From an uncultured Saprospiraceae bacterium (GTDB lineage Bacteria; Bacteroidota; Bacteroidia; Chitinophagales; Saprospiraceae): a stretch of DNA of 64,000 nt. Below the pieces are notes generated by a model that saw only the letters and a list, made by a program, of their open reading frames with translations, ran no database searches and was not told the DNA's origin. Below are positions 40,642-48,752 of this stretch, one piece after another (positions within the stretch are counted from its first letter, which is position 1; each line of letters begins with the position of its first letter). The DNA lies in contig CALLLR010000008.1 of the NCBI GenBank assembly GCA_938008185.1, positions 1,058-65,057 on the forward strand, in the 5' to 3' direction. The translations under genes were made by a program, and so were the position numbers.

Positions 40642-40649
40642 TAAATTTG
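40642..40649 (+). promoter_or_regulatory. Bacteroidota -7 box (TAnnTTTG) that contains the TTG used as the ORF start
   Basis: taaatttg at 40642-40649. The ORF-track start TTG at 40647 is its last three bases, so the true start codon of the 807-aa ORF is uncertain. Confidence 0.3.
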
Positions 40650-43070
40650 GATACTCAATCAAATATTTCAACGACTACGGCACCAGATCGCTTACCAGAT
40701 CCGCTTTTGCACGAATTTGAACACCGGGCCATTCATCTTATTACCGAAGCATTCAGCAGTGAGACGCAGGAGACGACTCATATTTCTTTATTAGCAGATG
40801 GATTAGTCGAACTAAGTGAACAGGCATCCGAAATCGGTAGCCTGGCATATCGTCACCTATTGTCCCCAGACCCCGAACGTTTTGAAGACTACCTGATTAC
40901 TTTCGACTGGTCGGAACGAGTAAAATATTTTTTATTATTGTGGCGAGATGTTTTATTTGAGGAGCATAAAACTTTTTTAAGAGTATCAGATGGAGACGTT
41001 AGCCTAAAGTCCTTTCAAGAACAAAAAACGAAATCGCGGGATTTACTTTTTGAATTAAGTAATGATTTAAAAAATTATTTGGAAGCTACAAAAAGGGCCA
41101 CGCCAAATCATGAAAAAGTAAGAGATACCTGGTATCTACAAACCAATCCCTGGCCGGTCTATCAAGTTCAGTTTGCTCAGTTTCAAGAACAAGCAAAAGA
41201 GTTAAGAAGACAATTTGAGGCACTATGGAATTCTTCTGGTGCCTACGTAGTCATCAATAGTCATTTTATTGACACCTTTAATAATTACCTGGAGACGGTT
41301 GAACAGGTGAAAGCAGAAATAATCTCCATTCGGGAAGGGATTAAGGAAAAAGGAAACGAGCCTATTTCAATGGAGGTAGTAAATCAATTGGAAGAGGTAG
41401 ATCGTAAAATTTTAATTTCCAGTAAACTGGGAAAATTCAATGCTGATCTGAACGACCAAATTCAGGAGTTACCTAAAAAAATGAAAGTAAACGTTTGTCT
41501 CAACAACGGATCTTTACAATACAAAGATTTGGATATTCGACAAAGTACCCGCGAATGGCTTGAATCGGAAGTGATGTCGGAAGTTTATGAATTTTTTCAA
41601 ATTAGTAATAATATTCATAGTCGCCTGAACCTGGCAATTGAAAATATTAGAAATCTAATTCAGAACGAACGACTGGAAGATCAGCCCCATCCCACAGGTG
41701 ACATCCTGCAAATCCTACAAAACCTCACCAAAAATCTCGATAAAAGTGGAGAAAATATTCTCGGATTAAGAGAAGATGTAAAAGGCCAGCTGGGGAAAAC
41801 ACTCGGTGTTTCAAAAGTTTTTCAGGAAGACTTTCTTTCCCTCTCCTTTCAATCTACAATCAACCAATATCGCCGCTATAAAATAGCCTGGTGGGAAAAA
41901 TTGAAAATGTGGATCAAAGAAAAAGGCTATTTTATTAAACAATACCGAAAAAGTATTCGCGAAGAAGAAGTTATGTCCGTCTCCGAAAAAATAGTCCGCG
42001 TGGTACGAGCACGTACCGTACAGGCCGATAATTTACACTATACCAACATTTTTATGACTCGCGGATACATCGGCAGCTCTTTTTGGGTAGGCCGTACGGA
42101 CGAACTAAATCACATAAGTACTCAAATCGAAAATTGGCAATTAGGTTACCGAGGCGCACTACTCTTAACAGGGAAAAGATTTTCTGGAAAAACATTGTTG
42201 GGACAACTGGTAAATCACAACTATTTTGGAGATAACGCCATTTCTCTTAATCCCGAAAATAGAATTACACTGCAGGGACGTACTTTCGAGACCACCATGG
42301 ATCTGGGAGCAAGTCTGGATTTTGTCTTGAAATATGCACAAGAACCCACCATGATCTGGATTGACGACCTGGAGCTTTGGCAAGATGATAAAATAACATT
42401 GAGCCAAAACGTTCGTCGCTTAATACGAGCGATTGACCAAAACGCAGGGCGAATTTTCTTTATGGTTTCGACGAGCAACTGGTTATACAATCAGCTCAAA
42501 CAGTGGTTTGACATTGAGAAAATTTTTCAGACAGAAATCACACTGGATCGAATGAGTCTGGAAGACATTAAGAAAGCCGTATTGATTCGACACAGTGCCA
42601 CGCATATGCAATTGATCAATGCGAACGGCGAGGAATTTACTTCTAAAGAACTGGACAAACTGGTAACCCGATTGTATCGAATATCCGAAGGAAATATCGG
42701 CCAGGTGATGCACCACTGGGCGGCGTTGATGCATAAGTATAATGACGAAAAAGTCCAGCCACATTCTGAAACTATGTTTACTTTACCTAATTTTATCACT
42801 CCGGATATTGCGGTACTTTTACGATCTATTATGATCGAACGAAGAACTAATGAGTACCGCTTACGAAAGTATTTGGGACCCACTTTTAAAAACGTATATC
42901 GTCCTATTTTACAACGGGCCATGAATCTGGGTGTCGTACAACGCAACATGAACGGCTGGCTCGAAGTAAACCCAATGGTGGTCAATGAGGTGGGCCGTTT
43001 GTTGGATGAACAACAATATCTGGAATTTGATGGAAAAAAAGGATATACTACCAATCAATCAATAATTTAA
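40647..43070 (+). CDS. Large P-loop NTPase: unknown helical N-terminal half, ATPase_2/AAA_16-like domain and a probable C-terminal winged helix
   Basis: FWVGRTDELNHISTQIENW...LLLTGKRFSGKTLLGQL carries Walker A (GKRFSGKT, nt 42171-42194). Walker B-like MIWIDDLELW. The C-terminal RKYLGPTFKNVYRPILQRAMNLGVV is wHTH-like. Confidence 0.6.
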   Translation: MDTQSNISTTTAPDRLPDPLLHEFEHRAIHLITEAFSSETQETTHISLLADGLVELSEQASEIGSLAYRHLLSPDPERFEDYLITFDWSERVKYFLLLWRDVLFEEHKTFLRVSDGDVSLKSFQEQKTKSRDLLFELSNDLKNYLEATKRATPNHEKVRDTWYLQTNPWPVYQVQFAQFQEQAKELRRQFEALWNSSGAYVVINSHFIDTFNNYLETVEQVKAEIISIREGIKEKGNEPISMEVVNQLEEVDRKILISSKLGKFNADLNDQIQELPKKMKVNVCLNNGSLQYKDLDIRQSTREWLESEVMSEVYEFFQISNNIHSRLNLAIENIRNLIQNERLEDQPHPTGDILQILQNLTKNLDKSGENILGLREDVKGQLGKTLGVSKVFQEDFLSLSFQSTINQYRRYKIAWWEKLKMWIKEKGYFIKQYRKSIREEEVMSVSEKIVRVVRARTVQADNLHYTNIFMTRGYIGSSFWVGRTDELNHISTQIENWQLGYRGALLLTGKRFSGKTLLGQLVNHNYFGDNAISLNPENRITLQGRTFETTMDLGASLDFVLKYAQEPTMIWIDDLELWQDDKITLSQNVRRLIRAIDQNAGRIFFMVSTSNWLYNQLKQWFDIEKIFQTEITLDRMSLEDIKKAVLIRHSATHMQLINANGEEFTSKELDKLVTRLYRISEGNIGQVMHHWAALMHKYNDEKVQPHSETMFTLPNFITPDIAVLLRSIMIERRTNEYRLRKYLGPTFKNVYRPILQRAMNLGVVQRNMNGWLEVNPMVVNEVGRLLDEQQYLEFDGKKGYTTNQSII

Positions 43071-43071
43071 T

Positions 43072-43797
43072 ATGCTGGACGGTTTAATTATTAGCTGGAG
43101 TCACTGGTTTATTTTGATCTTTATTTTTGTAGGGATCTTCATGCTGGTAGGGTTTATTATAAATCTAATCGAGCGCAATACCCGTACGGGTTATTTTTCT
43201 CGTCGTAGTATTCAGTATCTCCGGAAATTTAGAGGACTAATGGAACCATTCGGTATTGGTATTCTCTTAGTGACCTTTGCGCTGATCAACCCACTGGTAC
43301 ACGGCCCGTTGATTTTGGTAAGTTTGGCCCTGGCCTTTATTCCCTTAAAAAATTATTTTACCGGGCATCTTTTGTTATTGAATGATACCTTTTCTGAAGG
43401 TCAGCGCATCAAGGTAAATGGTAACGAAGGAGTAATTGATAAGATTGACCGTTTGGGACTAACACTCCAGATTAAAGAAGGCGTTCGTTTTATTAATTAT
43501 ACCACGCTGATTAACGATGGGTTTACCAAAGTAGAAGGAGAGCGACTGGAAGGCATCAATTTTTTGCAAATTGTTCCTCCGGAAGAAATGGAAGATAAAA
43601 GTATACGCAAGCTCAAAGATAAATTGTTTGCCTGTCCATACATTGATTGGTTTTATCCACCCGAGATTAAAATAGTTGATCAACCTAACCAGAAAATTGC
43701 GTATAAAGCAAGACTAAGAGTGCGTCAGGATCAACATCTTAAACATTTAATAAAGCTACTCGAAGACTGGGGATATCAGTGCCGGCCTATTCTTTAA
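43072..43797 (+). CDS. Small MscS-family mechanosensitive-channel-like protein
   Basis: Three TM helices followed by GQRIKVNGNEGVIDKIDRLGLTLQIKEG (MscS beta-domain signature) and an alpha/beta C-terminal domain. The ATG lies 1 nt after the upstream stop codon. Confidence 0.6.
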   Translation: MLDGLIISWSHWFILIFIFVGIFMLVGFIINLIERNTRTGYFSRRSIQYLRKFRGLMEPFGIGILLVTFALINPLVHGPLILVSLALAFIPLKNYFTGHLLLLNDTFSEGQRIKVNGNEGVIDKIDRLGLTLQIKEGVRFINYTTLINDGFTKVEGERLEGINFLQIVPPEEMEDKSIRKLKDKLFACPYIDWFYPPEIKIVDQPNQKIAYKARLRVRQDQHLKHLIKLLEDWGYQCRPIL

Positions 43798-43848: not shown

Positions 43849-45132
43849 ATGTTAGAACCTTATAATCTGCTCATTGAATCCAGTATTATTCTGCTGCTTT
43901 CCTTCGTTTTTGGAGAAATTTCTAAAAGAACCAGTGTGCCATCGGTACTCATGCTGATCGTTTTGGGCATTATCATCAAACTCGGGATTGATAATATTAT
44001 CATTCCGGAAAATCCGTATGACTTTTTTCCTTATTTAGAAATTTTGGGAATTGTCGGACTAATTATGATCGTACTGGAAGCGGCTCTGGAGCTGGAACTT
44101 AAACCGGAGAAATATATTCCGATTGCCAAAGCTTTCGGGATTGCGGCTATCGGATTAATTCTGTCTACCTGGGTAGCCGCAGAAATTTTAAAATATGCTT
44201 TTGAAATGGAAACCACCAAGGCCTGGTTGTACGCTACCCCACTTTCGATTTTATCCAGTGCGATTATTATTCCAAGTGTTAGCGGATTGCGACCTGACAA
44301 AAAGGAGTTTCACATTTACGAGAGTACCTTTTCTGACATCCTGGGGATTATTCTATTTTATTTTTTAAGTGGTAAACTACTCGCAGAGTACGACCCTATT
44401 GGCCACCCTGGCGGCGGTGCAGCAGCCTATGCCGGTACGATCGGACTGACGGTTATTCTATCGCTGATTGCCAGTTATATCATCGTCTTGATATTTCAGA
44501 ATATCAAGAGCCACGTAAAATTATTTCTACTGATTGCGGTACTATTACTCCTGTATTCGGTCGGTAAAAAAATGCACTTATCCTCACTCATCATCATTCT
44601 GGTTTTTGGATTATTGATTGCTAATATGAGATTATTTTTCCGCGGACCTTTAAAAAAGATGCTAAACTATAAAAAGGCCTTGCATATCTACGAAGGGCTT
44701 CACGTCATTACGATGGAAACGGCTTTTGTGGTACGTACCTTTTTCTTTGTAATTTTCGGTATTATTATCGAATTGAATACATTGGCTAGTATAAAAGTAG
44801 CCGCAGTTAGTATCGGAATTATATTTTCAATTTATTTAATTCGCTATGTCGTTTTGCGGATAATGATTGGGAAAGATATTCTACCACAATTATTTGTCGC
44901 GCCTCGGGGCTTAATTACCGTATTATTATTTTACGCTATTCCGGAAGAACTTGCCGTGGAAAACTTCGAAAAAGGAGTTCTGTTATTTATTATTATCGGA
45001 ACAAGTTTAATCATGACTGGTGCAATGATCAGTGATAAAAAACGATCCGGCGTAGCCATCAGAAAAGCAGAACGTAACATGGTAGGATCAGAGCCCTGGA
45101 CCGCACCAACCGTGGTGGAAAAAGAGGATTAG
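43849..45132 (+). CDS. Cation:proton antiporter (Na+/H+ exchanger family)
   Basis: About 12 TM helices. N-terminal FGEISKRTSVPSVLMLIVLGIII is typical of the CPA1/CPA2 families. Confidence 0.75.
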   Translation: MLEPYNLLIESSIILLLSFVFGEISKRTSVPSVLMLIVLGIIIKLGIDNIIIPENPYDFFPYLEILGIVGLIMIVLEAALELELKPEKYIPIAKAFGIAAIGLILSTWVAAEILKYAFEMETTKAWLYATPLSILSSAIIIPSVSGLRPDKKEFHIYESTFSDILGIILFYFLSGKLLAEYDPIGHPGGGAAAYAGTIGLTVILSLIASYIIVLIFQNIKSHVKLFLLIAVLLLLYSVGKKMHLSSLIIILVFGLLIANMRLFFRGPLKKMLNYKKALHIYEGLHVITMETAFVVRTFFFVIFGIIIELNTLASIKVAAVSIGIIFSIYLIRYVVLRIMIGKDILPQLFVAPRGLITVLLFYAIPEELAVENFEKGVLLFIIIGTSLIMTGAMISDKKRSGVAIRKAERNMVGSEPWTAPTVVEKED

Positions 45133-45170
45133 TGAGGAAAATGAATACTTAAGAATTTTGTAATGAATAG

Positions 45171-45205
45171 TGCCCTCAATCGCGTACTCCTACGCATTGA
45201 GGGCA
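45171..45205 (+). terminator. Hairpin terminator after the antiporter gene; first copy of a repeated hairpin family
   Basis: tgccctcaat-(15 nt)-attgagggca followed by tttataatt. Confidence 0.55.
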
Positions 45206-45227
45206 TTTATAATTACCCAAACATTTG

Positions 45228-45301
45228 TATTCCCGACGGGGCTCGAACCCGCAATCTCTGCTGTGAAAAAGCAACGACTTAACCAATTTGTCCACAGGAA
45301 C
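45228..45301 (-). tRNA. tRNA-Glu (UUC)
   Basis: By-eye cloverleaf: acceptor GTTCCTG/CGGGAAT (G1-U72, U6-G67), anticodon arm TTGCT-TTTTCAC-AGCAG, T arm GCGGG-TTCGAGC-CCCGT. No encoded CCA. Confidence 0.7.
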
Positions 45302-45312
45302 AGTGAAAAAAG

Positions 45313-45386
45313 TTATCCCGATGGGGATCGAACCCATAACCCACGGTTTAAAAGACCGTTACTCTAGCCAATTGAGCTACGAGGTA
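45313..45386 (-). tRNA. tRNA-Lys (UUU)
   Basis: Acceptor TACCTCG/CGGGATA (U1-A72, C3-A70 mismatch), D arm GCTC-AATTGGCTA-GAGT, anticodon arm ACGGT-CTTTTAA-ACCGT, T arm ATGGG-TTCGATC-CCCAT. Confidence 0.7.
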
Positions 45387-45393
45387 ATGCTAG

Positions 45394-45464
45394 CAGAAGC
45401 ATAGGGATTCGAACCCTAGCAGAGCAGTTTTGGAGACCACTTGACACAACCGACGCTTACTTCT
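45394..45464 (-). tRNA. tRNA-Trp (CCA), atypical (no clear D stem)
   Basis: Acceptor AGAAGTA/TGCTTCT (A1-U72), anticodon arm GTGGT-CTCCAAA-ACTGC, T arm TAGGG-TTCGAAT-CCCTA, G73. Only 17 nt lie between the acceptor and anticodon stems, and I could not draw a Watson-Crick D stem. Confidence 0.55.
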
Positions 45465-45500
45465 GTTTTTTATTCAGTAATGAATAATTAAAAATCACAG

Positions 45501-45572
45501 TGGCAACACGGGAATCGAACCCTACCCTTTCCGGCTTCAACGGAATGCTCTCACCAAGTGAGCTATATTGCC
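45501..45572 (-). tRNA. tRNA-Phe (GAA), atypical T stem
   Basis: Acceptor GGCAATA/TGTTGCC, D arm GCTC-ACTTGGTGA-GAGC, anticodon arm TTCCG-TTGAAGC-CGGAA. In the T arm GGG-TTCGATT-CCC only 3 GC pairs are evident. Confidence 0.6.
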
Positions 45573-45602
45573 ATTTAACTAAAAAACATTACTTGTACTA
45601 TG

Positions 45603-45676
45603 TTCCGATGGATGGATTCGAACCACCAACCTCTTACGTATCAGGTAAGTGCGCTGACCAATTGCGCCACACCAGA
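45603..45676 (-). tRNA. tRNA-Ile (GAU)
   Basis: Acceptor TCTGGTG/CATCGGA (U1-A72, two G-U pairs), D arm GCGC-AATTGGTCA-GCGC, anticodon arm CTTAC-CTGATAC-GTAAG, T arm GGTGG-TTCGAAT-CCATC. Confidence 0.75.
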
Positions 45677-45685
45677 GTTTCTTAG

Positions 45686-45757
45686 AGCTGATGACCGGAA
45701 TCGAACCGATAGTATCCTAATTACAAATTAGGTGCATTACCGTTTTGCTACATCAGC
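45686..45757 (-). tRNA. tRNA-Thr (UGU)
   Basis: Acceptor GCTGATG/CATCAGC, anticodon arm CCTAA-TTTGTAA-TTAGG, T arm ATCGG-TTCGATT-CCGGT, U73. Confidence 0.75.
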
Positions 45758-45780
45758 TTATTTTCATTAAAAGTACATTG

Positions 45781-45853
45781 CGTCTCAGATAGGACTCGAA
45801 CCTATATTCCTCACCTTAACAGGGTGTCGCTTTACCAAATTAGCTACCAAGAC
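45781..45853 (-). tRNA. tRNA-Asn (GUU)
   Basis: Acceptor GTCTTGG/CTGAGAC, anticodon arm ACACC-CTGTTAA-GGTGA, T arm ATAGG-TTCGAGT-CCTAT, G73. Confidence 0.75.
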
Positions 45854-45880
45854 TTTTAAATAATCCTTTAATCATTTTAG

Positions 45881-45954
45881 TAGCGATGGAGAGATTCGAA
45901 CTCCCGATCTACTCTGTGTAAGAGAGTTGCGTTAAACCGCTACGCTACATCGCT
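45881..45954 (-). tRNA. tRNA-Val (UAC)
   Basis: Acceptor AGCGATG/CATCGCT (A1-U72), D arm GCGT-AGCGGTTTA-ACGC, anticodon arm ACTCT-CTTACAC-AGAGT, T arm GGGAG-TTCGAAT-CTCTC. Confidence 0.8.
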
Positions 45955-45967
45955 ATTTCTACTTTTG

Positions 45968-46054
45968 CGGAAAGAGTGGGAGTCGAACCCACACGAGTCG
46001 TTAGCTCCGAACTGTTTTCAAGACAGTGGCCACCACCTATTGGCTTGTCTTTCC
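45968..46054 (-). tRNA. tRNA-Ser (UGA), long variable arm
   Basis: Acceptor GGAAAGA/TCTTTCC, anticodon arm ACTGT-CTTGAAA-ACAGT, a variable arm of about 18 nt, T arm GTGGG-TTCGACT-CCCAC, G73. Confidence 0.8.
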
Positions 46055-46078
46055 GTTTTTTTAAAAAATCATTCATTG

Positions 46079-46151
46079 TCCAAGCGGTAGGAGTTTTGAA
46101 CCTACACTCCCTGCATCCCAAATGCAGTGCTCTCCGTTAAGCTACGCCTGG
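46079..46151 (-). tRNA. tRNA-Pro (UGG), atypical 9-nt T loop
   Basis: Acceptor CCAGGCG/CGCTTGG (C1-G72), anticodon arm CTGCA-TTTGGGA-TGCAG, T arm GTAGG-TTCAAAACT-CCTAC, A73. Confidence 0.6.
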
Positions 46152-46253
46152 ATATTTAATATTCATAGATACCTTCCCATTTTCAAATTGTATACACTAA
46201 GGGCATTAATCATTGTTGAACATTCGATATTCAACATTCAATATTTCAAATAG

Positions 46254-46327
46254 CGGTAACGACGGGAATCGAACCCGCAACTTGAGGATAGACAATCCCC
46301 TGCTCTACCTGATTGAACTACGTCACC
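46254..46327 (-). tRNA. tRNA-Asp (GUC)
   Basis: Acceptor GGTGACG/CGTTACC, D arm GTTC-AATCAGGTA-GAGC, anticodon arm GGGGA-TTGTCTA-TCCTC (pyrimidine at position 37), T arm GCGGG-TTCGATT-CCCGT, G73. Confidence 0.7.
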
Positions 46328-46369
46328 GTTTATACTCAATTAACAATGTTATCCAACGCGGATGCTGTT

Positions 46370-46387
46370 CTACGCATTGAGGGCATT
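46370..46387. repeat. 18-bp direct repeat of 45190-45207 (ctacgcattgagggcatt)
   Basis: Identical 18-mer on both sides of the tRNA array. The right copy carries only the 3' half of the left hairpin. Confidence 0.9.
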
Positions 46388-46812
46388 ATTAATTAATAAA
46401 AAACAGTATACAAACTTGGAAATTAGATATTGGAATCTTGGTTCATAACTGCTTTTTTCTAACAGCTATAAACTCCTTTGAGATAAACTACTAGATAGGT
46501 TTGGGAATAAAAGACCCACTAGGATCACCGGCCCAGACGCTAAATTGCGTGCCGCCCGTGGGTTCCTGGTCCTTCTCCCGTTTTGAGGAAATACTAAAAT
46601 TCATATTTTGAATTACTAATTGCATTCTTTAAAGATAATGTTTTATACGCGTAAAATTACGTTCGCACTTTCAAAATACTAAACCGTTATATCCCTGATA
46701 AAAGTTCCGGATGGGTTTAATTTATTTTCATAAAAAAACAAACATCTGCCTTTACCAACTGTGAATCAACCATTTAGAAGATAGATTATTTTAAAATAAA
46801 ATCTATAAACAT

Positions 46813-46852
46813 AAAAAACTTCCTCCCACCCAAAGGTAGAAAGAAGTTTTTT
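46813..46852 (-). terminator. Intrinsic terminator of the acyl-CoA dehydrogenase gene
   Basis: Minus-strand RNA cuucuuucuacc-uuu-gggugggaggaag (G-U rich, 12 bp) followed by uuuuuu. An A-run on the other side makes it potentially bidirectional. Confidence 0.6.
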
Positions 46853-46866
46853 CTTAAAATTATTCA

Positions 46867-46912
46867 ATGATTCCCTCCGTACGTAACCTACGATTGAGGG
46901 TATTATTAATTA
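46867..46912. repeat. Third, diverged copy of the hairpin family seen at 45164-45215
   Basis: aatgattccctccgtacgtaacctacgattgagggtattattaatta compared with aatagtgccctcaatcgcgtactcctacgcattgagggcatttataatta. Confidence 0.6.
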
Positions 46913-46937
46913 TTCATTCAAATATTACTCATTACCC

Positions 46938-48752
46938 CTAAAAAGGATAATCTTCTTTATCAATTACCACTTCCGCAATCATTCTACGAGCCTTCTTTAC
47001 ATTAACCGGAGGATACTTCGTAAAACGCTTCAGTCCTAATAACATCGTTTTCAGCAAATCACCTTCCGCAAAAGATACCAATGCGTCCGTCGCGTTTTTA
47101 TGAATTCTCGCGGTCGCATCTGTCATAAATACTTTGAGCATTGCTTCGTAAATTTCCATTGGGAATTTTGTCTCCGTTTTTTCAGAAAGCTTCTCTACTC
47201 GTAATAAGGTGGATTCTGCCACCAGCAAATCAATCATCATATCCGCTACATTCATCAAAATTTCCTGCTCTTCCTTTAAATTGATTTTACCATCCATCTG
47301 CATCTTAGCCGCAGCTCCAGCTACCATTAGAATCACTTTCTTAAAGTCCCCTACCGCTTTTTTCTCTTCGCCGTACACTCCCTCTGGCTTGGCCATCGAA
47401 GGCATAGACGTTAATTCTTTTTGTACCGCCCAGGCTGGCCCGACGATATCCAGCTTACCTTTCATAGCACGCTTTAACAACATGTCTACCGTCAACAGGC
47501 GATTGATCTCATTGGTCCCTTCGTAGATTCTGGCAATCCGTGAATCCCGGTACGCACGCGCGGCGGTCCCTTCTTCGCTAAAACCCATTCCGCCGTGAAT
47601 CTGTAAGGTTTCATCCACAATATAATCGAGTGCTTCGGAACCTGCTACTTTCAGTATCGCACATTCGATCGCGTATTCTTCCGCCGCTTGTAATTTGGCT
47701 TCTGCAAAATCCAACCCGCTTTCCATTAGTTCTGTTTTCTTATCCTGCATCAAATCAGATACCCGATATAAAGCAGATTCTGTGGTAAAAATCTTGATCG
47801 CTTCTTCGGCCAACTTATACTTAATGGCACCGAAGTTTGCGATCGGCACCTTAAATTGAATTCGCTCTTTAGCATAAGACACGGCAGAACGTAAACTTTC
47901 TTTGGCTCCTCCTAACGACAATGCACATAGTTTAAATCGACCATTATTAAGCGAATTAAAAGCGATCAGGTGACCTTTGCCAATTTCTCCCAGAATACTA
48001 TCTGCGGGTACTTTCATGTTTTCAAAAAACACCTGACGAGTAGAAGAACCGTTGATTCCCAACTTCTTTTCTTCGGCTCCAAGTACGAGTCCTTCCGTTC
48101 CTTTTTCTACCAAAAATCCGGTAAATTTATTACCGTCGATTTGCGCAAATACGATAAACAGATCCGCAAATCCGGCATTAGAAATCCACATCTTCTGCCC
48201 GTTGATAATATAATGCTGACCGTCATCGGTCAAATCCGCACGGGTCTTGGCCGAGAGAGCATCTGATCCGGAACTCGGCTCCGTCAAACAGTAGGCCCCG
48301 ACGATTGAACCATCACACATTCCTGGTAAATATTTTTGCTTCTGTTCCTCATTACCAAAATACAAAACAGGCAGCATACCTATTCCAGTGTGCGCCGCAT
48401 ATGTGGTATTAAAAGAAGCTGCCGGGCCCATCGTATCACAAATCAAGGTATTGGTGTTGGTATCCAACTCCATTCCACCGTAGGCCTCCGAAATATGTGT
48501 ACCCAGTAAGCCCAAACCACCCATCTTGCGGAGCATGGTATCTGCTAACTCATATTGCTTCTTTTCCAGCTCATCTAAATTTGGCTTAACTTCTTTATTC
48601 AGAAAATCCAAAACCATATTACGAATCATTAGCTGCTCCTCGTCAAAATCCTCGGGGATAAAAATATCCTTTGCCTCAGTATCCTTGATTAAAAATTCTC
48701 CTCCCTGGAGTGGCTGTAAATCCGTGCTGCTTATTTCGGGATTCTTTGTCAT
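46938..48752 (-). CDS. Acyl-CoA dehydrogenase (long, about 600-aa FadE/VLCAD-like type)
   Basis: Conserved ACAD motifs (GAYCLTEPSSGSDA, QIHGGMGFSEE, YEGTNEI) plus a C-terminal extension domain. Confidence 0.9.
   Translation of the reverse strand: MTKNPEISSTDLQPLQGGEFLIKDTEAKDIFIPEDFDEEQLMIRNMVLDFLNKEVKPNLDELEKKQYELADTMLRKMGGLGLLGTHISEAYGGMELDTNTNTLICDTMGPAASFNTTYAAHTGIGMLPVLYFGNEEQKQKYLPGMCDGSIVGAYCLTEPSSGSDALSAKTRADLTDDGQHYIINGQKMWISNAGFADLFIVFAQIDGNKFTGFLVEKGTEGLVLGAEEKKLGINGSSTRQVFFENMKVPADSILGEIGKGHLIAFNSLNNGRFKLCALSLGGAKESLRSAVSYAKERIQFKVPIANFGAIKYKLAEEAIKIFTTESALYRVSDLMQDKKTELMESGLDFAEAKLQAAEEYAIECAILKVAGSEALDYIVDETLQIHGGMGFSEEGTAARAYRDSRIARIYEGTNEINRLLTVDMLLKRAMKGKLDIVGPAWAVQKELTSMPSMAKPEGVYGEEKKAVGDFKKVILMVAGAAAKMQMDGKINLKEEQEILMNVADMMIDLLVAESTLLRVEKLSEKTETKFPMEIYEAMLKVFMTDATARIHKNATDALVSFAEGDLLKTMLLGLKRFTKYPPVNVKKARRMIAEVVIDKEDYPF

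Follow-up and report, generated by a model that had tools for sequence, protein, structure and literature searches.

Do the eleven tRNA genes packed head to tail into 1.1 kb of a Saprospiraceae chromosome form an ordinary core operon, a fragment of a phage, the relic of an old acquisition, or an accessory tRNA set? This question is raised by a 64,000-nucleotide (nt) stretch of contig CALLLR010000008.1 from an uncultured Saprospiraceae bacterium (GenBank assembly GCA_938008185.1), which is called the window here. ARAGORN, run on the whole 64-kb window, finds eleven tRNA genes at 45227-46327, all on the minus strand, and no tRNA gene elsewhere in it. The array lies between a Na+/H+ exchanger (antiporter) gene (427 amino acids (aa), 43849-45132, plus strand) and an acyl-CoA dehydrogenase gene (fadE-like, 604 aa, 46938-48752, minus strand), and is co-directional with and downstream of fadE. 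Very probably, the eleven genes are an accessory, lineage-specific tRNA island, namely a deletion derivative of an acquired array family whose first gene is tRNA-Asp.

The nearest outgroups lack the island, close relatives differ in it, and other species carry it at other loci. In L005, a relative with a FadE protein 84% and an antiporter 76% identical to those of the window, a gap of 103 bp separates the two genes, which holds a terminator hairpin and no tRNA gene, and in the relatives at 87%, 80%, and 77% (L020, L021, and L003, the last of these at 80%) fadE has other neighbors and no tRNA gene beside it. Six distinct relatives (L001/L002, L022, L023, L029, L030, L031) have an array downstream of fadE, and fadE is about 96% identical in those array-bearing relatives for which it was measured (L001, L022, L023). 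As the array occurs in the ~96% relatives and is missing from the next ones out, it was inserted, or was present, before those lineages split and has been remodelled since. A core operon would be expected to keep one set of genes in one place across related species; instead, the content differs from genome to genome and the site of the 84% relative is empty. The window has 11 genes, L001 has 15 in a gap of 3.6 kb, L029 has at least 11, and L032, which was compared by gene content with its chromosomal site not established, has at least eight. Synteny of the antiporter-fadE interval had been named as a check by the original prediction, which was made from the sequence alone and proposed an acquired auxiliary array rather than a core operon; the locus turns out not to be conserved, the opposite of the outcome that would have spoken against it, and the empty fadE-antiporter site of L005, the variable content and three other loci all lend support to the proposal.

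Arrays led by tRNA-Asp occur in at least nine Saprospiraceae contigs and in at least four chromosomal contexts, namely the dehydrogenase/antiporter interval of the window itself, a site between a histidine kinase-LytTR pair and FGGY kinase-desaturase genes (L024 and L027), a site between LpxD and an MFS transporter (L025), and a site at DUF1501/DUF1553 genes (L026). A 28-mer of the array tRNA-Asp was found in five species-representative Saprospiraceae metagenome-assembled genomes and one metagenome contig, and tRNA-Asp is the first array gene in each of them. The arrays of L024 and L027 have 25 tRNA genes each within about 4 kb (3.4 kb in L027), with 24 anticodons for all 20 amino acids. This full set provides about one tRNA per codon box, with U34 for four-codon boxes (ACG for Arg) and G34/U34 pairs for split boxes, and it includes Ile-TAT and a single CAT. 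The L027 order, with the genes that the window lacks in parentheses, is Asp, Pro, (Leu, Arg, Arg, Tyr, Leu, Gly, Ser-GCT), Ser-TGA, (Lys, Cys), Val, Asn, Thr, Ile-GAT, (GOLLD RNA with an embedded tRNA, His, Ile-TAT), Phe, (Met, Gln), Trp, Lys-TTT, Glu. The 11 window genes follow this order as a strict subsequence, hence the window copy is best taken as a deletion derivative, and is best read as one that would have lost four blocks from the full form, comprising 13 tRNA genes and GOLLD.

Deletion does not account for every gene. The window tRNA-Lys is 92% identical to the upstream Lys of L024 and 84% identical to the same-position Lys of L027, and tRNA-Glu(TTC) exists in two types, 63% identical to each other and both at the last array position. 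Among the copies compared (window 45227-45301, minus strand; L001:11760-11832; L024:4495-4569; L027:3063-3135), the Glu types group the window with L024 and L001 with L027, against the relationships given by the other genes, which suggests that cassettes may have been exchanged between arrays. Together, the affinity of Lys and the two Glu types point to recombination or gene conversion besides deletion.

The window also differs from five sister arrays by GOLLD. In all five arrays that include the region after Ile-GAT (L001, L024, L027, L029, and L032), Rfam places a match to RF02032 there, which spans the full model with E-values of 1e-22 to 1e-34, at 88-127 bits, and thus below the gathering score of 150:

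L001:9913-10862, GOLLD RNA (RF02032)
L024:2684-3666, GOLLD RNA (RF02032)
L027:3812-4808, minus strand, GOLLD RNA (RF02032)
L029:4381-4884, GOLLD RNA (RF02032)
L032:2303-2746, GOLLD RNA (RF02032)

The inter-tRNA stretch of about 900 nt that holds GOLLD is 82% conserved between distant arrays, and a tRNA-like gene is embedded in each copy, with the anticodon CTA in L001, TCA in L024, L027, and L032, and TGA in L029. Two of these anticodons are complementary to stop codons, and the acceptor stem of the embedded gene of L001 looks imperfect. In the window, no RF02032 match at E ≤ 1 is found within 45100-47000, and the cluster is thus without GOLLD; tRNA-Phe lies 28 nt after Ile-GAT, where the five sister arrays have GOLLD, usually followed by His and/or Ile-TAT. 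The array of L026 resembles that of the window, with Phe directly after Ile-GAT and no GOLLD match. The window copy would be a derivative that lost GOLLD. The window spacer after Ile-GAT (45574-45601) opens with ATAGTA, as does the spacer after Ile-TAT in L001 (10937-10954), which suggests that the deletion of GOLLD, His, and Ile-TAT may have spanned from one tRNA 3' end to another.

The tRNA genes themselves are real, and their cloverleaves are kept by compensatory evolution. In order of transcription, the array consists of:

46253-46327, minus strand: tRNA-Asp(GTC), first in the array (ARAGORN; RF00005 58.1 bits)
46078-46151, minus strand: tRNA-Pro(TGG), C1-G72, 9-nt T-loop (ARAGORN; RF00005 58.9 bits)
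45967-46054, minus strand: tRNA-Ser(TGA), long variable arm (ARAGORN; tRNA clan match to RF01852, the tRNA-Sec model, 47.1 bits, gathering score 47)
45880-45954, minus strand: tRNA-Val(TAC), A1-U72 (ARAGORN; RF00005 69.6 bits)
45780-45853, minus strand: tRNA-Asn(GTT) (ARAGORN; RF00005 61.3 bits; four compensatory pairs)
45685-45757, minus strand: tRNA-Thr(TGT) (ARAGORN; RF00005 68.6 bits; eight compensatory pairs)
45602-45676, minus strand: tRNA-Ile(GAT), U1-A72 (ARAGORN; RF00005 65.1 bits)
45500-45573, minus strand: tRNA-Phe(GAA) (ARAGORN; RF00005 51.9 bits at 45501-45572)
45393-45464, minus strand: tRNA-Trp(CCA), atypical short D-arm, A1-U72, G73 (ARAGORN only; below the RF00005 threshold)
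45312-45386, minus strand: tRNA-Lys(TTT), U1-A72, C3.A70 mismatch (ARAGORN; RF00005 60.6 bits)
45227-45301, minus strand: tRNA-Glu(TTC), G1.U72, last in the array (ARAGORN; RF00005 57 bits)

These calls reproduce the number, strand, order, and anticodons that had been predicted. The 11 anticodons are all different, without a repeated unit among the co-oriented genes, and CCA is encoded by none of the 11, both as foreseen. Nine genes score 52-70 bits with RF00005 (gathering score 29), and Rfam accepts ten of the eleven, with the atypical tRNA-Trp as the sole failure, so that the covariance models, which had been proposed as a test, do not reject most of the genes. For tRNA-Phe, the odd drawing by ARAGORN is better taken as G1-C72, A73, and C74. 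The spacers measure 6-35 nt, and one 101 nt; since the ARAGORN ends take in nucleotide 74, these values agree with the 7-36 and 102 nt given earlier. C74 is present in all 11 genes, for which the chance by base composition is about 4e-9. The core tRNA-Asp of L003 (L003:20321-20395), which adjoins the AccA gene, likewise has C74 without CCA, followed by A-rich sequence, and C74 may reflect 3' processing across the whole lineage and not be particular to the array.

The original prediction had regarded five acceptor starts as unusual for core tRNAs, and had judged the stems against a genome of mid-40s percent G+C. All five starts (Lys U1-A72, Trp A1-U72, Ile U1-A72, Val A1-U72, Glu G1.U72) are confirmed. 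A1-U72 is normal for bacterial tRNA-Trp, and non-G starts exist in tRNA-Ile, -Gln, and -Asn of Escherichia coli, so that the truly unusual starts are narrowed to Lys, Val, and the G.U of Glu. The window has in fact 40.2% G+C. The array tRNAs range from 42.5 to 54% G+C with a mean of 50%, compared with 62% for the core tRNA-Asp of a relative. This comparison comprises one gene, Asp from L003 (an 80% relative), from which the array tRNA-Asp (~53% G+C) differs at 28 of 75 positions and matches at 47, in line with a foreign character of the array.

Across orthologs, compensatory double changes occur at 47 and one-sided changes at 31 of the 242 stem pairs predicted for the 11 window genes, counted on alifold consensus structures, which are biased to pairs compatible in all sequences, and canonical pairs make up 96-100% of the cells in the stem alignments. 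The 47 compensated pairs place the cloverleaves under selection. When a standard cloverleaf was imposed on eight Ile-GAT sequences, 97.6% of the cells were paired, compared with 27-49% with slid partners, and the covariation score was equaled by none of 500 shuffles. Pair 1-72 of Ile-GAT is UA in six, AU in one, and CG in one of these sequences, which argues that the unusual first pairs are maintained features and not damage. Other genes of the array behave similarly: tRNA-Val has compensatory changes at six stem pairs (six orthologs), and the G1.U72 of tRNA-Glu is retained in four of four orthologs. The eight tRNAs shared by the window and L001 are 83-100% identical, as against 78-80% for the flanking DNA. 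tRNA-Ser(TGA) is identical in the window and L001, and tRNA-Asp(GTC), the leading gene throughout the family, has 100% identity to its counterparts in L001, L022, and L026. The tRNA-Trp gene, with a 3-bp D-stem and a D-loop of ~5 nt, is conserved in the sister arrays with six compensatory stem pairs, and is therefore an atypical tRNA that is being maintained; the ARAGORN Trp genes of L001, L024, and L027 are likewise missing among the tRNA matches listed by Rfam.

Upstream of tRNA-Asp, the island has a leader of its own. The original prediction had seen no protein gene for 1.8 kb around the array, but the gap (45133-46937) holds a conserved 44-aa open reading frame (ORF), followed and preceded by further conserved elements:

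46491-46625, minus strand: conserved 44-aa micro-ORF in the array leader (MQLVIQNMNFSISSKREKDQEPTGGTQFSVWAGDPSGSFIPKPI), upstream of tRNA-Asp in all four genomic contexts
46441-46473, minus strand: leader hairpin right after the micro-ORF stop codon (GTTTATAGCTGTTAGAAAAAAGCAGTTATGAAC), 11-bp stem in RNAalifold
46398-46418, minus strand: conserved block ending in a T-run (CAAGTTTGTATACTGTTTTTT), seen in the alignment ~25 nt past the hairpin
46668-46710, minus strand: two conserved blocks upstream of the micro-ORF (GGAACTTTT, GGTTTAGTATTTTGAAAG), candidate promoter region

The micro-ORF lies 160-300 nt upstream of tRNA-Asp, is 44 aa long in nine variants, and has its indels in frame (33 nt in L026). 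With a ratio of nonsynonymous to synonymous substitutions (dN/dS) of mostly 0.23-0.44, it is under purifying selection. Only eight proteins in a database of 5.8 billion match it, and no Pfam family does. The hairpin that follows is the most conserved leader block in nine arrays, with three of 16 predicted leader pairs changed on both sides (RNAalifold), and the 5' part of the T-run block can, as judged by eye, pair with the 3' arm of this hairpin. The T-run is absent in L024 and L027, hence reading the leader as an attenuator is no more than a lead. The blocks GGAACTTTT and GGTTTAGTATTTTGAAAG are conserved across genomic contexts in the window, L001, L023, L026, and L027; the Bacteroidota -7 motif TAnnTTTG is absent from the leader, so that the promoter assignment stays putative.

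A second class of conserved elements consists of AT-rich palindromes of the form AATTAATAATGCC...GGCATTATTAATT, which form strong hairpins (z from -3.3 to -9.4). Within and around the array, the following elements are found, together with a hairpin that separates the island from fadE:

46335-46399, minus strand: AT-rich palindromic element upstream of tRNA-Asp, hairpin of -18.4 kcal/mol, z = -3.3
46152-46252, minus strand: 101-nt Asp-Pro spacer, remnant of a palindromic element; sister arrays have Lys-CTT or Ala here
45160-45218, minus strand: palindromic element closing the array, beside the antiporter stop codon, hairpin of -26.6 kcal/mol, z = -5.2
46865-46911, minus strand: degenerate palindromic element just past the fadE stop codon, one mismatch to the 19-mer AATTAATAATGCCCTCAAT, weak fold, z = -0.9
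46813-46852, minus strand: hairpin and T-run, also conserved in L001 and L023; on a reading of the sequence, the likely terminator of fadE, which sets this gene apart from the island

Allowing up to three mismatches, the 19-mer AATTAATAATGCCCTCAAT matches only inside the island, at four sites in the 64-kb window and at 11 in L001 (8360-11921). The palindromes behave like a repeat multiplied within the array. The clade with the array at the fadE locus has them in abundance, whereas the arrays of L024, L025, and L027 have none, and they are thus a clade-specific addition and no defining part of the family. Genome-wide REP elements were considered and rejected, as the close matches all lie inside the island in the window and L001. 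An exact 18-nt direct repeat on either side of the array, shared by the palindromes at 45190-45207 and 46370-46387 (0.01 expected by chance), was considered as a pair of phage attachment (att) sites and rejected too, as it merely represents two copies of the palindrome family.

The surroundings of the island are those of an ordinary chromosome. Homologs of the dehydrogenase assign the organism to the Saprospiraceae/Lewinellaceae, although an exact search with the window FadE protein gave no recorded match. A Pfam scan of 29 window ORFs, including 26 of the 37 ORFs of 200 aa or more, returned ordinary Bacteroidota functions such as ClpB, type IX secretion proteins, formiminotransferase-cyclodeaminase, and GcvT. 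No integrase, transposase, or phage gene was found among these 29 ORFs, and none adjoins any sister array; the phage or prophage setting of GOLLD-associated tRNA islands is thus not seen for the window array. Two ORFs of 807 and 241 aa upstream of the antiporter (40647-43797, plus strand) have no Pfam match; both are conserved beside the antiporter in L001 (86% and 84%), and the 241-aa ORF also in L005 (52%).

The array had originally been called phage-like, and comparison with phage databases had been proposed. When the window array, the full array of L024, and the GOLLD region of L024 were compared by blastn with 50,697 phage records, only single tRNA-sized matches of 71-87% identity were obtained, and IMG/VR contains no exact match to the array Ser, the array Asp, or either of two core motifs of GOLLD. 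Blastn against plasmids returned isolated tRNA-sized matches only, and the single phage and plasmid matches together span 71-89% identity. The best phage matches are tRNA clusters of Cellulophaga phages, with ~80% identity over three tRNAs and a different gene order. A 17-mer of the palindrome has 14 single matches in viral contigs, none near a tRNA, which were treated as chance. The label "phage-like" is therefore not sustained by any phage or IMG/VR match, and rests on analogy and on the GOLLD of the sister arrays.

Among described systems, the closest kind is the L-array, of which the window array is a reduced member. L-arrays are long, co-oriented, and non-periodic, have a sporadic distribution, are acquired horizontally in addition to the core set and are eroded by indels, and Bacteroidetes are one of the phyla from which they have been reported (Santamaria-Gomez et al., 2021, PMC8421152). 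The window array is likewise co-oriented, dense, non-periodic, and composed of one gene per anticodon, exceeds by far the length expected from gene-by-gene accretion, and has a sporadic distribution, with an empty site in L005 and no array beside fadE in L020, L021, and L003; its family also keeps a conserved backbone order that insertions, deletions, and duplications have eroded. In contrast to L-arrays, only 11 genes are left in the window (25 in a full family member), no HNH homing endonuclease is linked to the Saprospiraceae family, and the leader has a 44-aa micro-ORF and a hairpin where the array of Anabaena has promoter repeats. The tRNA array unit has been defined by at least 20 tRNA genes at two or more per kb, in a study in which Bacteroidetes go unmentioned (Tran et al., 2016, PMC4758250). 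The 11 genes in 1.1 kb of the window (10 per kb) exceed this density but fall short of the 20 genes, while L024 and L027 have 25 genes in ~4 kb.

GOLLD occurs near tRNA islands (PMC12286853), and GOLLD-containing tRNA clusters have been described in phages and prophages (PMC12286853; Morgado et al., 2020, as cited there). Mycobacterial tRNA clusters combine GOLLD, tRNA-Ile-TAT, and a pseudo-tRNA inside GOLLD (PMC6582537). The sister arrays share GOLLD inside the array, an embedded tRNA-like gene, and the rare Ile(TAT) with these mycobacterial and phage clusters, and a chromosomal setting without prophage with the mycobacterial ones. Unlike these clusters, the window has lost GOLLD and Ile-TAT, the sister GOLLD matches stay under the gathering score, there is no HNH endonuclease, and the host belongs to the Bacteroidota; at the nucleotide level, similarity to mycobacterial or plasmid arrays is lacking as well. 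The cluster of Cellulophaga phage phi38:1 (NC_021796) is AT-rich and compact like the window array, with the ~80% identity over three tRNAs, yet has a different gene order, interspersed small phage ORFs, no common leader and no GOLLD detected by blastn, and there is no evidence of direct relatedness. In the paper collection searched, no description of such arrays in Saprospiraceae was found.

Several points weigh against an acquired, maintained accessory island. No mobility gene or target-site duplication was found for it, no donor was found in the phage, IMG/VR, or plasmid collections, and within the ~96% fadE clade the array is syntenic and apparently inherited vertically. The support for its genes as extra copies is indirect, coming from the empty site in relatives and the core Asp of L003, and the single-gene core comparison and the bias of the consensus-based pair counts limit the evidence on composition and on stem selection, respectively. 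More than half of the ancestral genes are gone from the window, and two window genes have lineage-specific blemishes: a 2-nt T-loop insertion in Pro, which is specific to the window because five orthologs have a 7-nt T-loop, and C3.A70 in Lys, which is also specific to the window and is C3-G70 in the orthologs. Both the gene losses and the blemishes would be expected under slow decay too, and the array could accordingly be a relic, acquired and then lost piecemeal, whose 11 survivors are neutral passengers without a role in translation. The loss of 13 ancestral tRNA genes and GOLLD with a different subset kept in each lineage, the defects of Pro and Lys, the lack of a recognizable Bacteroidota promoter motif, and the usually poor expression of L-arrays (PMC8421152) agree with such a relic. 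However, nine of 11 genes have intact cloverleaves, stem substitutions are overwhelmingly compensated, the tRNAs shared with L001 are better conserved than the flanking coding DNA, and the leader micro-ORF is under purifying selection, which makes neutral decay unlikely.

That the array is instead an ordinary core operon of the genus, serving as the main or only source of its isoacceptors and differing between species by normal operon turnover, would fit the synteny downstream of fadE in six distinct relatives, the structural selection on the tRNAs and the core Asp of L003, which likewise has C74 and no CCA. This is very improbable, as the site is empty in the 84% relative with otherwise collinear flanks, the gene content is different in every genome, the family occupies three other loci, the tRNAs are AT-rich unlike the one core tRNA compared, and arrays of 11 genes go far beyond the accretive pattern described for Bacteroidetes (PMC8421152). 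Least credible of all is that a prophage includes the array, or that a phage brought it in very recently, in which case it would serve phage translation or counter an anticodon-nuclease defense. Phages and prophages are the typical carriers of GOLLD (PMC12286853), which the sister arrays have, the full set has Ile-TAT and forms a minimal complete decoding set, and the weak best phage matches are tRNA clusters of Cellulophaga phages, which infect Bacteroidota. But no phage, integrase, or transposase gene occurs among the scanned window ORFs or beside the sister arrays, the insertion is only 1.8 kb long, the exact IMG/VR scans are empty, the gene order is unlike that of Cellulophaga phages, and the array is older than the divergence of lineages that share only 80% identity in the flanking DNA, so that a phage origin of this kind is largely refuted for the window.

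As an accessory island derived from an acquired array, the locus would comprise ~1.65 kb in the convergent fadE-antiporter intergenic region of an otherwise ordinary Saprospiraceae chromosome. A promoter of its own, upstream of the micro-ORF and the leader hairpin, would drive it as a single transcription unit, and the transcript would be cut by RNase P and a 3' nuclease; as CCA is not encoded, it would need to be added enzymatically. The island would thereby give extra isodecoders beside a complete core set encoded elsewhere. These would probably matter under translation stress, by analogy to Anabaena PCC 7120 and its trn operon, an L-array that stays silent during normal growth and for which, in Anabaena only, induction upon impaired translation has been shown (PMC8421152). 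A bolder proposal, which we hold to be rather unlikely, is that of a self-contained tRNA-GOLLD island that moves without a mobility protein and whose expression is gated by a translation-sensing, attenuator-like leader. Here, the micro-ORF would be followed by the covarying hairpin, the 3' arm of which would alternatively pair with the downstream segment before the T-run, so that the spare tRNAs would be switched on when ribosomes stall. If true, this would provide a leader mechanism for the induction by translation stress seen in L-arrays, and the arrays of the window and L026, which have no GOLLD, would together with the others form a natural series for probing the role of GOLLD.

For the annotation of this organism, the array tRNAs are not to be counted in its core decoding set. 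The finding extends horizontally acquired tRNA arrays, as well as their link with the enigmatic GOLLD RNA, to the Saprospiraceae (Bacteroidota). Among otherwise similar genomes, the family shows the array eroded to different degrees, with 25 genes at one end and 11 at the other, or at least five on contigs that cut the array short, and with and without GOLLD. Together with the micro-ORF leader, this erosion series offers material on the purpose of accessory tRNAs and GOLLD, and on the regulation and decay of such arrays.

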